Origin: Escherichia coli O157:H7
GTDB taxonomy: Bacteria > Pseudomonadota > Gammaproteobacteria > Enterobacterales > Enterobacteriaceae
Direction: 5' to 3' (one strand)
Assembly (NCBI RefSeq): GCF_013167455.1
Contig: NZ_CP038328.1
DNA length: 64,000 bases
Shown: piece by piece, positions 15,161 to 46,918 of the stretch
Layout of the letters: each line of letters starts with the position of its first letter
Numbering within the stretch: the first letter of the stretch is position 1
Program-made: the position numbers and the translations under genes
The notes under the pieces: model-generated
Told to the model about the DNA's origin: nothing
Databases searched by the model: none
Seen by the model: the letters and a program-made list of their open reading frames with translations, nothing else

Positions 15161-15823
15161 TTACCCCCGATTTCCATATTTCTTTTTCCATAATACGACC
15201 AGAGAACCTGCCAGGCCAAACACCAGCAGCACCACCGGGAGCAGCATCAGGCATGACATCAGCTGGTCCTCGTACTTTAAAAATACCGGCGTTTTGCCGA
15301 GCATGTAACCCAGAGTTGTCAGGATCAATACCCACAGCAGACCGCTCATCCAGTTGAAAAACTGAAAGCGCGCGTTATTCAGCCCTGATAACCCGGCAAT
15401 CGTCGGCAGCAGTGTTCTGACAAACGCAATAAAGCGACCAATTAACAGCGCCGATAAACCGTGTTTATGAAAAAGATGGTGTGCGCGTTGATGATAATGC
15501 GCGGGTAAATGAGATAGCCAGTTTTGTACGGTGCGGGTATTGCCCAGCCATCGCCCCTGAATATAGCTGACCCAGCAGCCGAGGCTGGCGGCAACGGTCA
15601 GCAGCAGAATCGTTTGCGGATAGCCCATCGCGCCTTTCGCAATCAACACGCCGACCAATACCAGTAAACTGTCGCCCGGTAAAAAGGCCGCCGGAAGCAA
15701 GCCGTTTTCAAGGAACAAAATTACAAACAAGACAAAATACAACATGCCAATCATCGATGGATTGGCCAGGGTTTCAAAATCCTGCGCCCACAGGGCTTGC
15801 AGCAATTGGGTCAAAAGTTCCAT
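15161..15823 (-). CDS. yqjA: DedA-family inner-membrane protein YqjA
   Basis: 220 aa, polytopic membrane protein, DedA-type sequence. Confidence 0.9.
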
Positions 15824-36029: not shown

Positions 36030-42782
<6,753 letters not shown>

Positions 42783-42823: not shown

Positions 42824-44338
<1,515 letters not shown>

Positions 44339-44544
44339 TTAACATCTGTTGTTATTTTGCACGGTTTTTGTCGGGTATGGATTTGATAATTGCTGCGCAA
44401 ATGCACGCTTTCAGGGCATTAACTGCCTGATTTTTGGGCAAGATAATTAACGTTTTCGTATAGTAACAGAGTGAAAGTATTTTAAATCAACGAATTAGAT
44501 TTGTGCTTTAATCGCAAATTGCGATCTAAATCAAATTAATCGGT

Positions 44545-44571
44545 TAAAGATAACCGCAGCGGGGCCGACAT
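44545..44571 (+). promoter_or_regulatory. Sigma-28 (FliA) class-3 flagellar promoter for aer
   Basis: TAAAGATA-N11-GCCGACAT matches the consensus TAAAGTTT-N11-GCCGATAA, about 50 nt upstream of the aer ATG. Confidence 0.55.
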
Positions 44572-44620
44572 AAACTCTGACAAGAAGTTAACAACCATAT
44601 AACCTGCACAGGACGCGAAC

Positions 44621-46141
44621 ATGTCTTCTCATCCGTATGTCACCCAGCAAAATACCCCGCTGGCGGACGATACCACTCTGATGTCCACTACCGATCTGCA
44701 AAGCTATATCACTCATGCTAATGACACTTTTGTGCAGGTGAGCGGCTTTACCTTGCAAGAGTTACAAGGGCAGCCGCACAACATGGTGCGTCACCCGGAT
44801 ATGCCAAAAGCGGCGTTTGCGGATATGTGGTTCACCCTGAAAAAAGGGGAGCCCTGGAGCGGCATCGTGAAAAATCGCCGCAAAAATGGTGACCATTATT
44901 GGGTGCGGGCCAATGCGGTACCGATGGTGCGCGAGGGAAAAATCAGTGGCTATATGTCGATTCGTACCCGGGCGACGGATGAAGAGATCGCGGCGGTGGA
45001 GCCGCTGTACAAAGCGCTGAACGCCGGACGTACCGGTAAGCGTATTCATAAAGGCCTGGTGGTGCGTAAAGGCTGGCTGGGTAAACTGCCTTCATTACCG
45101 CTTCGCTGGCGGGCGCGTGGAGTGATGACCCTGATGTTTATCTTGCTGGCGGCCATGCTTTGGTTTGTTGCTGCCCCGGTGGTGACGTATATCCTCTGTG
45201 CGTTAGTGGTATTGTTGGCAAGCGCCTGTTTTGAATGGCAGATTGTCCGCCCGATAGAAAATGTCGCCCGTCAGGCACTGAAGGTGGCGACCGGAGAGCG
45301 TAATAGTGTTGAGCATCTGAATCGCAGCGATGAGCTGGGGCTGACATTACGCGCGGTAGGGCAGCTTGGCCTGATGTGCCGTTGGTTAATTAACGATGTC
45401 TCAAGCCAGGTGTCCAGTGTCAGAAACGGCAGTGAGACGCTGGCGAAAGGCACCGATGAACTGAACGAACATACCCAGCAGACAGTTGATAACGTTCAGC
45501 AAACGGTGGCGACCATGAACCAAATGGCGGCGTCGGTGAAACAGAACTCTGCCACGGCGTCGGCTGCCGATAAACTGTCAATCACCGCCAGTAATGCGGC
45601 AGTGCAGGGCGGGGAGGCGATGACCACGGTGATCAAGACAATGGACGATATCGCCGACAGTACCCAGCGCATTGGCACCATTACTTCGCTGATTAACGAT
45701 ATTGCGTTTCAGACCAATATTCTGGCCCTGAATGCGGCGGTGGAAGCGGCGCGTGCCGGCGAACAGGGCAAAGGTTTTGCGGTGGTGGCGGGGGAAGTGC
45801 GTCATTTAGCCAGCCGCAGCGCCAATGCTGCCAACGATATTCGCAAGCTGATTGATGCCAGTGCTGATAAGGTGCAATCCGGTTCGCAGCAGGTACACGC
45901 CGCCGGACGTACGATGGAAGATATTGTGGCACAGGTGAAAAACGTCACCCAGTTGATTGCCCAGATTAGCCATTCAACGCTGGAACAGGCCGATGGTCTT
46001 TCCAGCCTGACCCGTGCAGTGGATGAGCTTAACCTCATCACCCAGAAAAATGCCGAGCTGGTGGAAGAGAGTGCGCAGGTGTCGGCGATGGTGAAACACC
46101 GCGCCAGCCGACTGGAAGACGCGGTGACGGTGCTGCATTAA
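44621..46141 (+). CDS. aer: Aerotaxis receptor Aer (PAS-FAD, HAMP, MCP signalling domain)
   Basis: 506 aa; highly conserved MCP motif [32 protein letters not shown]. Confidence 0.92.
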
Positions 46142-46174
46142 TCGGTATGCCGGATCCGGTATTTGATACACGAT

Positions 46175-46266
46175 GCCTGATGCGATGCTGGCGCATCTTA
46201 TCAGGCCTACGGGGTGTGTAGCGGGTGTAGGCCGGATAAGGTGCGTCAAGCGTCGCATCCGGCAAT
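46175..46266. repeat. REP/BIME palindromic elements
   Basis: Two inverted REP units between convergent aer and yqjI. Confidence 0.7.
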
Positions 46267-46294
46267 TGCACCGCGCCACTGGCGGATGCGGCGA

Positions 46295-46918
46295 TTAATC
46301 CAGTTGCGTAATATCAAAAGCGGCGCGGTCGATCACCGCAATGATCTTTTTTATTTGTGCATCAGTGATATCACTCTGGTTGACGCGTAAATTCAGCACC
46401 GCTTTAAAATTATCTAGCGCCCGCTTCATTTGCGGGTTCTGGCGCAGCGCAGCGCCAACGCAACGCGCTTTGATGCGTTCTTCAATCATCTCCACCTGTT
46501 CGCGGTTTTCTTCCAGCCACTGCGCGCCTTGTTCGGTCAGCGCAATCTGCTTCTTACCACCTTCCTCTTCGCGGATGGTAATCAGCGACTGCTCCTGCAG
46601 AAAATCCAGCGTCGGGTAGATGACGCCCGGGCTTGGGGTGTAATTCCCTTGGGTTAGATTCTCAATCGCTTTAATCAATTCGTAACCGTGGCTGTCATCG
46701 CGCGAGAGAATATCCAGAATCACCAGACGCAATTCACCGTGACCAAAGAAACGTTGCCGACGACCGCCGCCGCGACCGTGGCGACCACCGCAACATTGAC
46801 CGTGTTCATGCTGGTGACCGTGTCCGCAGTGCTCGTGTTCTGACTTCTCACCTTTGCAGCAGCCCTCATGGCGTGGCTGGCCTTCATGTTTACAACACCC
46901 TTCGTGATGATGGCTCAT
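46295..46918 (-). CDS. yqjI: PadR-family metal-responsive regulator YqjI
   Basis: 207 aa; His/Cys-rich N-terminus (MSHHHEGCCKHEGQPRHEGCCKGE...HEHCGHGHQHEH). Confidence 0.88.
   Translation of the reverse strand: MSHHHEGCCKHEGQPRHEGCCKGEKSEHEHCGHGHQHEHGQCCGGRHGRGGGRRQRFFGHGELRLVILDILSRDDSHGYELIKAIENLTQGNYTPSPGVIYPTLDFLQEQSLITIREEEGGKKQIALTEQGAQWLEENREQVEMIEERIKARCVGAALRQNPQMKRALDNFKAVLNLRVNQSDITDAQIKKIIAVIDRAAFDITQLD

Follow-up and report, generated by a model that had tools for sequence, protein, structure and literature searches.

Class 3 promoters of the flagellar regulon depend on the release of FliA (sigma-28) after completion of the hook-basal body, with the export of FlgM freeing the sigma factor, and a promoter of this kind was reportedly predicted for aer by Park and colleagues in 2001. 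The promoters of fliC, tar, motA, flgM, tsr and yhjH share with that of aer their dependence on FliA, the two recognition octamers and the 11-nt spacer, but they score 16-29 bits on position-weight matrices (PWMs) built from FliA sites, against 12-14 bits for aer. CRP, which is active only when glucose is absent, also acts at the CRP-dependent sigma-70 promoters assigned to Class I and to Class II, where it is centred at -61.5 and -41.5, respectively, and makes the same contact between its AR1 surface and the C-terminal domain of the polymerase alpha subunit (alpha-CTD) as it does at aer. The CRP site of aer lies at -49.5, between these two classes, a position from which sigma-70 promoters are activated very weakly.

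A counterpart of aer is E. coli trg, likewise a chemoreceptor gene that does not belong to the flagellar clusters and whose sub-optimal sigma-28 promoter is combined with CRP at -49.5. It is directly activated by CRP and is the sole other sigma-28 promoter of the aer design, whereas CRP binds a tsr fragment tightly and no effect on tsr expression was detected (PMC2859248). All three genes (aer, trg and tsr) map outside flagellar regions I-III (Zhao et al. 2007). In K-12, the best CRP-like site upstream of trg was found to be centred at -49.5 from the predicted start, matching 13 of 22 consensus positions as opposed to 17 of 22 for aer. The two promoters differ in which element is weak: trg combines a poor -35 (TAAGTAAT) with a good -10 (GCCGATGA), and aer a good TAAAG with a -10 that carries C for T.

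The aer promoter of K-12 has been dissected by Hollands et al. 2009 (PMC2859248; Mol Microbiol 75:1098), who write it as TAAAGATA-n11-GCCGACAT, just as it is read here. Primer extension revealed a single start 6 bp past the -10 octamer; the mapping used a plasmid-borne fragment yielding a product of 'approximately 148 nt', and the +1 position may be wrong by about one base. An aer::lacZ fusion produced 223 Miller units in CRP+ FliA+ cells, 53 in CRP- FliA+ cells and 12 in CRP+ FliA- cells. The CGA-to-GCT triple mutant of the -10 element (aer206) dropped to 12 units, the FliA-minus level, and single changes in the -35 element at -32, -30 and -28 left 23-50 units, compared to 223. In vitro, the promoter is transcribed by E-sigma28 and not by E-sigma70, and it is likewise E-sigma28, not E-sigma70, that opens aer DNA from -10 to +4, as detected with KMnO4 (PMC2859248).

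Genome-scale data point in the same direction. Fitzgerald, Bonocora and Wade (PLoS Genet 2014, 10:e1004649, PMC4183435) list the identical 28-mer (TAAAGATAACCGCAGCGGGGCCGACATA) as a FliA ChIP-seq site with a FAT score of 21, that is, 21-fold above threshold, and report a significant, approximately 19-fold drop in aer RNA, from 225 in the wild type to 12 in a fliA deletion. Microarray analyses placed aer among the genes that go down in a fliA mutant and up upon FliA overexpression (Zhao et al. 2007), and FliA dependence of the Salmonella aer gene is mentioned, by way of a citation, in Hollands et al. 2009 (PMC2859248). All of this is already known: publications between 2001 and 2014 cover the aer promoter, the dependence on FliA and the unusual co-activation by CRP. 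The present analysis adds that motif statistics fail to reveal the site and that its -49.5 layout is conserved across genera.

The window analysed here is a 64-kb stretch of E. coli O157:H7 DNA that spans tdcD to ygiF and is reverse-complemented relative to the way K-12 is usually shown; its aer region is 100% identical to that of strain PV15-279. Direct reading of the window places the sigma-28 motif at 44545-44571 on the plus strand (TAAAGATAACCGCAGCGGGGCCGACAT, composed of TAAAGATA, an 11-nt spacer and GCCGACAT). It is intergenic, lies on the sense strand and ends 49 nt before the aer start codon at 44621. The elements that make up the promoter are the following:

44517-44538, plus strand: CRP site AATTGCGATCTAAATCAAATTA, with half-sites TGCGA and TCAAA (44520-44524 and 44531-44535), centred at -49.5 and matching 17 of 22 positions of the CRP consensus
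44545-44552, plus strand: sigma-28 -35 octamer TAAAGATA, from -32 to -25, read directly
44553-44563, plus strand: spacer ACCGCAGCGGG, 11 nt between the octamers, read directly
44564-44571, plus strand: sigma-28 -10 octamer GCCGACAT, with its CGA core at -11 to -9 (44566-44568)
44577, plus strand: predicted transcript start (+1), a C, carried over from the K-12 mapping by virtue of 100% identity
44577-44620, plus strand: 5' untranslated leader of 44 nt, read directly from the inferred start
44621-46141, plus strand: aer coding sequence, 506 aa, an open reading frame with PAS and MCP signalling domains, named after RefSeq

The assignment of +1 to position 44577 follows from four concordant numberings in Hollands et al. 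2009 (PMC2859248): the 6 bp from octamer to start, a CGA that spans -11 to -9, a TAAAG whose T is at -32 and the CRP centre at -49.5. With this start, the centre of the CRP site (44527.5) falls at -49.5, the value given in that study. The published start is thus the sixth nucleotide past GCCGACAT, outside the 7-10 nt that the earlier note had anticipated; it is that range which was mis-set, and dependence on sigma-28 is not refuted by the difference. The two checks that the same note proposed, a weight-matrix scan and the mapping of the 5' end in wild type and fliA mutant, are both, in effect, already in the literature. Within the -10 octamer, a C (44569) occupies the position at which most FliA sites carry T, and the leader contains a Shine-Dalgarno sequence (AGGA, 44610-44613) 7 nt before the ATG. 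We also observed that the -35 element sits within a 16-nt palindrome (CGGTTAAAGATAACCG, 44541-44556; 6-bp arms and a 4-nt loop), which was picked up as a minus-strand match by the terminator scan, is absent from Enterobacter and Pluralibacter, and is probably coincidental.

The window and K-12 MG1655 are identical base for base over 44510-44640. The K-12 aer promoter is therefore the same element, with identical CRP site, -35, spacer, -10, start, leader and start codon, and the differences reside in the O157:H7 strain background and in three SNPs further upstream (44491, 44506 and 44509), all of them outside the CRP site and the core promoter; intergenic differences from MG1655 are confined to this more distal DNA. 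Because the DNA is identical, the K-12 results were carried over to the O157:H7 window, and we infer that its aer promoter works as it does in K-12.

The identity of the downstream gene as aer, put forward in the earlier note, is borne out by the RefSeq annotation at 100% identity ('aerotaxis sensor receptor Aer' in PV15-279) and by the domains of its product, which has PAS at its N terminus and a methyl-accepting chemotaxis signalling domain at its C terminus. Its divergent neighbour is ygjG/patA, encoding putrescine aminotransferase, from which it is separated by an intergenic region of 417 bp. The claim that aer lies far from the flagellar clusters also holds: none of the 61 annotated features of the 64-kb window is a flagellar gene, and the map position of aer, 69 min, is remote from flagellar regions I-III (Zhao et al. 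2007). Its placement in the class 3 FliA regulon agrees with the 223 versus 12 Miller units, the 225 versus 12 RNA values and the exclusive transcription by E-sigma28 described above.

The segment comprising positions 44517-44577 is, almost certainly, the FliA/CRP promoter of aer, a single promoter that has been experimentally characterised in K-12. According to this interpretation, RNA polymerase carrying FliA would recognise TAAAGATA as its -35 and GCCGACAT as its -10 element, melt the DNA from about -10 to +4 and initiate at 44577; the resulting aer mRNA would be monocistronic and have a leader of 44 nt. Bound at 44517-44538, cAMP-CRP would recruit the polymerase through contacts of its AR1 surface with the alpha C-terminal domains. 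Because both elements match the consensus weakly, chiefly as a result of the C in the -10 octamer, efficient initiation would call for cAMP-CRP, and aer could operate as an AND gate of flagellar completion and carbon limitation.

The CRP site, which the earlier note overlooked, stands out in the window. It is the sole sequence in the 64 kb to match at least 16 of the 22 consensus positions, with 0.00 such matches expected in shuffled sequence. Loss of CRP lowers the activity of the aer promoter about four-fold, from 223 to 53 units, displacing the site by 5 bp in either direction (+/-5 bp) abolishes activation, and FeBABE footprinting locates alpha-CTDs on both sides of CRP, an arrangement in which the placement of sigma-28 domain 4 must differ from that of sigma-70 domain 4 (PMC2859248). 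At high polymerase concentration in vitro, CRP becomes dispensable (PMC2859248); CRP is a booster of the aer promoter and not an absolute requirement. This last result, together with the 53 units that persist without CRP and with the finding that CRP does not directly regulate the six other sigma-28 promoters of the classical set (PMC2859248), is what can be said for regarding aer as a plain class 3 promoter that uses FliA only, with the CRP-like sequence serving patA or nothing. We consider this very improbable, since the four-fold drop took place even though FliA was supplied from a plasmid and activation did not survive the +/-5 bp shifts (PMC2859248), the gap between the CRP half-site and TAAAG is kept exactly at 9 nt in three genera (see below), and over 300 bp separate the CRP site from the beginning of patA.

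The sigma-28 motif itself is far less conspicuous. Using TAAAGTTT-N11-GCCGATAA as the consensus for FliA sites, the aer site presents 4 mismatches, two in each octamer (12 of 16 positions matched). In the -35, A replaces T at positions 6 and 8; in the -10, C replaces T at position 6 and T replaces A at position 8. Both cores, TAAAG and GCCGA, are matched in full (10/10). The location of the motif and its 11-nt spacer were described correctly in the earlier note, but the distance of three positions from consensus was an undercount, and the label 'near-consensus' overstated the match. No site with three or fewer mismatches was detected in the 64-kb window, and the 7 sites with four or fewer compare with 5.2 +/- 2.4 expected from dinucleotide shuffles. 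The exact core, TAAAG-N14-GCCGA, is a little more out of the ordinary (2 in the window versus 0.16 expected).

PWMs trained on the sites that Fitzgerald et al. 2014 (PMC4183435) tabulate from FliA ChIP-seq (their Table 2), with the aer site excluded (leave-one-out), convey the same impression. Trained on the other 51 sites, the matrix assigned 12.3 bits to the aer site, which ranked 11 in the window and 45 among the 52 published sites. When trained on the 24 strong sites it yielded 13.8 bits and rank 1 in the window, with a narrow margin of about 1.3 bits over coding-sequence noise. The low score arises chiefly from the replacement by C of the T in GCCGAT: at this sixth position of the -10 octamer (GCCGACAT in aer), T is present in 41 of the 51 other published sites and C in none. 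Judged by sequence alone, the sigma-28 motif is indistinguishable from chance in the window.

Two further sequences of this type were noted in the window. At 15431-15458 on the plus strand, AAAGCGACCAATTAACAGCGCCGATAAA is identical to a weak intragenic FliA ChIP-seq site, '(yqjA)', with a FAT score of 2 (Fitzgerald et al. 2014), and runs antisense to yqjA within that gene. The all-sites PWM, for which this sequence had itself been one of the training sites, gives it 14.5 bits, more than the functional aer promoter. The exact TAAAG-N14-GCCGA core occurs once more in the window, as TAAAGATCCAGGTGGTAACGCCGAGGA (36845-36871, plus strand), inside ygjI and again antisense; this copy is missing from the 52 FliA ChIP-seq sites of K-12 and probably represents a look-alike without function.

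The unremarkable statistics are one of two points in favour of a chance motif, with aer being read by sigma-70 polymerase from elsewhere in the 417-bp aer-patA region; the other is the presence upstream, on the plus strand, of two sigma-70-like hexamer pairs (44419-44447 and 44435-44464). Nevertheless, two such matches are what shuffles lead one to expect (2.4, for a scan of 44150-46400 in which the counts for sigma-70 sites and terminators did not exceed those of shuffles), and no credible alternative promoter for aer emerged. Primer extension gave a single product, neither a transcript nor an open complex was obtained with E-sigma70 and mutations in the sigma-28 -10 and -35 elements kill activity (PMC2859248), and aer RNA is some 19-fold lower upon fliA deletion (PMC4183435); a chance match is accordingly even less probable than a promoter served by FliA only. 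Equally improbable is the proposal that aer is a direct, class 2 target of FlhDC bearing an incidental FliA motif, for although Pruss et al. 2003, as cited by Fitzgerald et al. (PMC4183435), found aer to be induced by FlhDC, Fitzgerald et al. conclude that this effect is indirect, was mistaken for a direct one and that the gene 'is actually transcribed by FliA' (PMC4183435), and FliA-minus cells display background activity despite the presence of FlhDC (PMC2859248).

What makes the aer site persuasive as a FliA/CRP promoter is its context, namely its position, the neighbouring CRP site, the layout shared across genera and the experiments performed on identical DNA. A FliA scan strict enough to guard against false positives would miss this promoter, which is betrayed by its position, the adjoining CRP site and its conservation in other genera. 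The case also illustrates that a real alternative-sigma promoter can be recovered by careful reading of raw sequence.

Conservation of the promoter within E. coli is extensive. The 64-nt module running from the CRP site to the start was matched in 5354 of 5426 complete E. coli genomes, exactly in 3533 of them and with 95-99% identity in 1820 of the 5354, and the functional elements and the leader are invariant in five aligned E. coli strains. In all three of the one-mismatch genomes that were sampled, the difference is a C-to-T change at 44541, which leaves all functional elements untouched because it falls in the linker of 6 nt that joins the CRP site to the -35 octamer. A more drastic rearrangement was observed in E. 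coli 20Ec-P-124 (NZ_AP017610.1), a pig isolate from Japan, which carries an insertion of approximately 1.07 kb with an ISApl1-family (IS30-like) transposase gene. The insertion lies 2-3 bp upstream of the -35 TAAAG (around 44542-44544) and separates the CRP site from the core promoter. Based on the published results with +/-5 bp shifts, it should abolish activation by CRP, unless the insertion sequence transcribes outward.

To extend the comparison beyond the species, one genome per species was scanned for Aer-like loci with a degenerate nucleotide pattern representing the PAS motif of Aer, which returned at least 120 loci across the Proteobacteria. The matches listed include 10 Enterobacterales, with Salmonella, Citrobacter and other Escherichia absent from them. 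All 10 sampled Enterobacterales aer orthologues present TAAAG-N14/15-GCCGA, ending 42-95 nt before the start codon, and the octamer spacer measures 11 nt in 6 of the 10 and 12 nt in the remaining 4 (Pantoea/Mixta). Among 106 usable loci with Aer-like genes, FliA motifs of at least 12 bits were detected upstream in 6 cases on the sense and 2 on the antisense strand, and those of at least 16 bits in 3 and 0 cases, respectively. The enrichment outside the Enterobacterales is weak, and conservation is claimed for the Enterobacterales alone.

The entire module can be aligned between E. coli, Enterobacter sp. MGH24 and Pluralibacter. The invariant portions across the three genera are TGCGATCT..ATCAA, TAAAG and GCCGA, while the spacer sequence and the flanks are divergent. 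Relative to its predicted start, each of the two non-Escherichia promoters has the CRP centre at exactly -49.5, and the 9-nt gap from CRP half-site to TAAAG is kept in all three genera. The -10 elements read GCCGAAAA in Enterobacter and GCCGAAAT in Pluralibacter, with A where E. coli has C. Among the sampled genera, a C at position 6 of the -10 is thus confined to E. coli, and a base other than T is common to the three genera that possess the CRP site. No CRP site at -49.5 was identified in the sampled Yersinia, Erwinia and Pantoea, where the sigma-28 core is nonetheless kept. In Yersinia thracica, an aer-like gene is preceded, 59 nt upstream of its start, by a near-consensus promoter of 24.6 bits (TAAAGTTTTCTCTACGACTGCCGATGAC, that is, TAAAGTTT...GCCGATGA), and no CRP-like site at -49.5 was found for this gene. 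The contrast with Yersinia suggests that CRP dependence and a weak -10 may go together.

These comparisons raise the possibility that the -49.5 layout represents a selected, deliberately weakened sigma-28 promoter in Escherichia, Enterobacter and Pluralibacter, a proposal that we advance tentatively and to which we assign slightly less than even chances. If correct, the synthesis of Aer would require flagellar completion (FliA) and carbon limitation (cAMP-CRP) together, and substitution of T for C at 44569 (C44569 -> T, giving GCCGATAT) would be predicted to raise aer expression and to reduce its CRP dependence considerably. The proposal builds on the Hollands et al. model and is no substitute for it.

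The regions flanking aer presented additional features. The open reading frame of ygjG/patA, on the minus strand, reaches position 44314 (496 aa), whereas the RefSeq start is located at 44203 (459 aa). A sigma-54-like -24/-12 motif (TGGCGC-N5-CTGCA, minus strand, 44265 to 44250), matching 9 of 11 consensus positions and preserving the GG and GC, lies within the extension of the patA frame (44204-44314), about 50 nt upstream of the annotated patA start. The literature search did not locate a primary paper mapping the patA/ygjG promoter, and the sigma-54-like site is reported here as a sequence observation; as a putative promoter, it would fit both the shorter patA annotation and nitrogen-regulated expression.

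On the other side of aer, a scan of 44150-46400 found no simple T-tract terminator in the 153-nt gap between the convergent aer and nfeR (yqjI) genes. The gap contains an inverted pair of REP-like palindromes (46174-46266; GCCTGATGCGATGCTGGCGCATCTTATCAGGCCTAC ... GTAGGCCGGATAAGG...GCATCCGGCA), for which a fold of -85.6 kcal/mol is predicted as RNA, with a z-score of -7.1. Being BIME-like, the pair may serve to mark the 3' end of the aer mRNA or to stabilise it.
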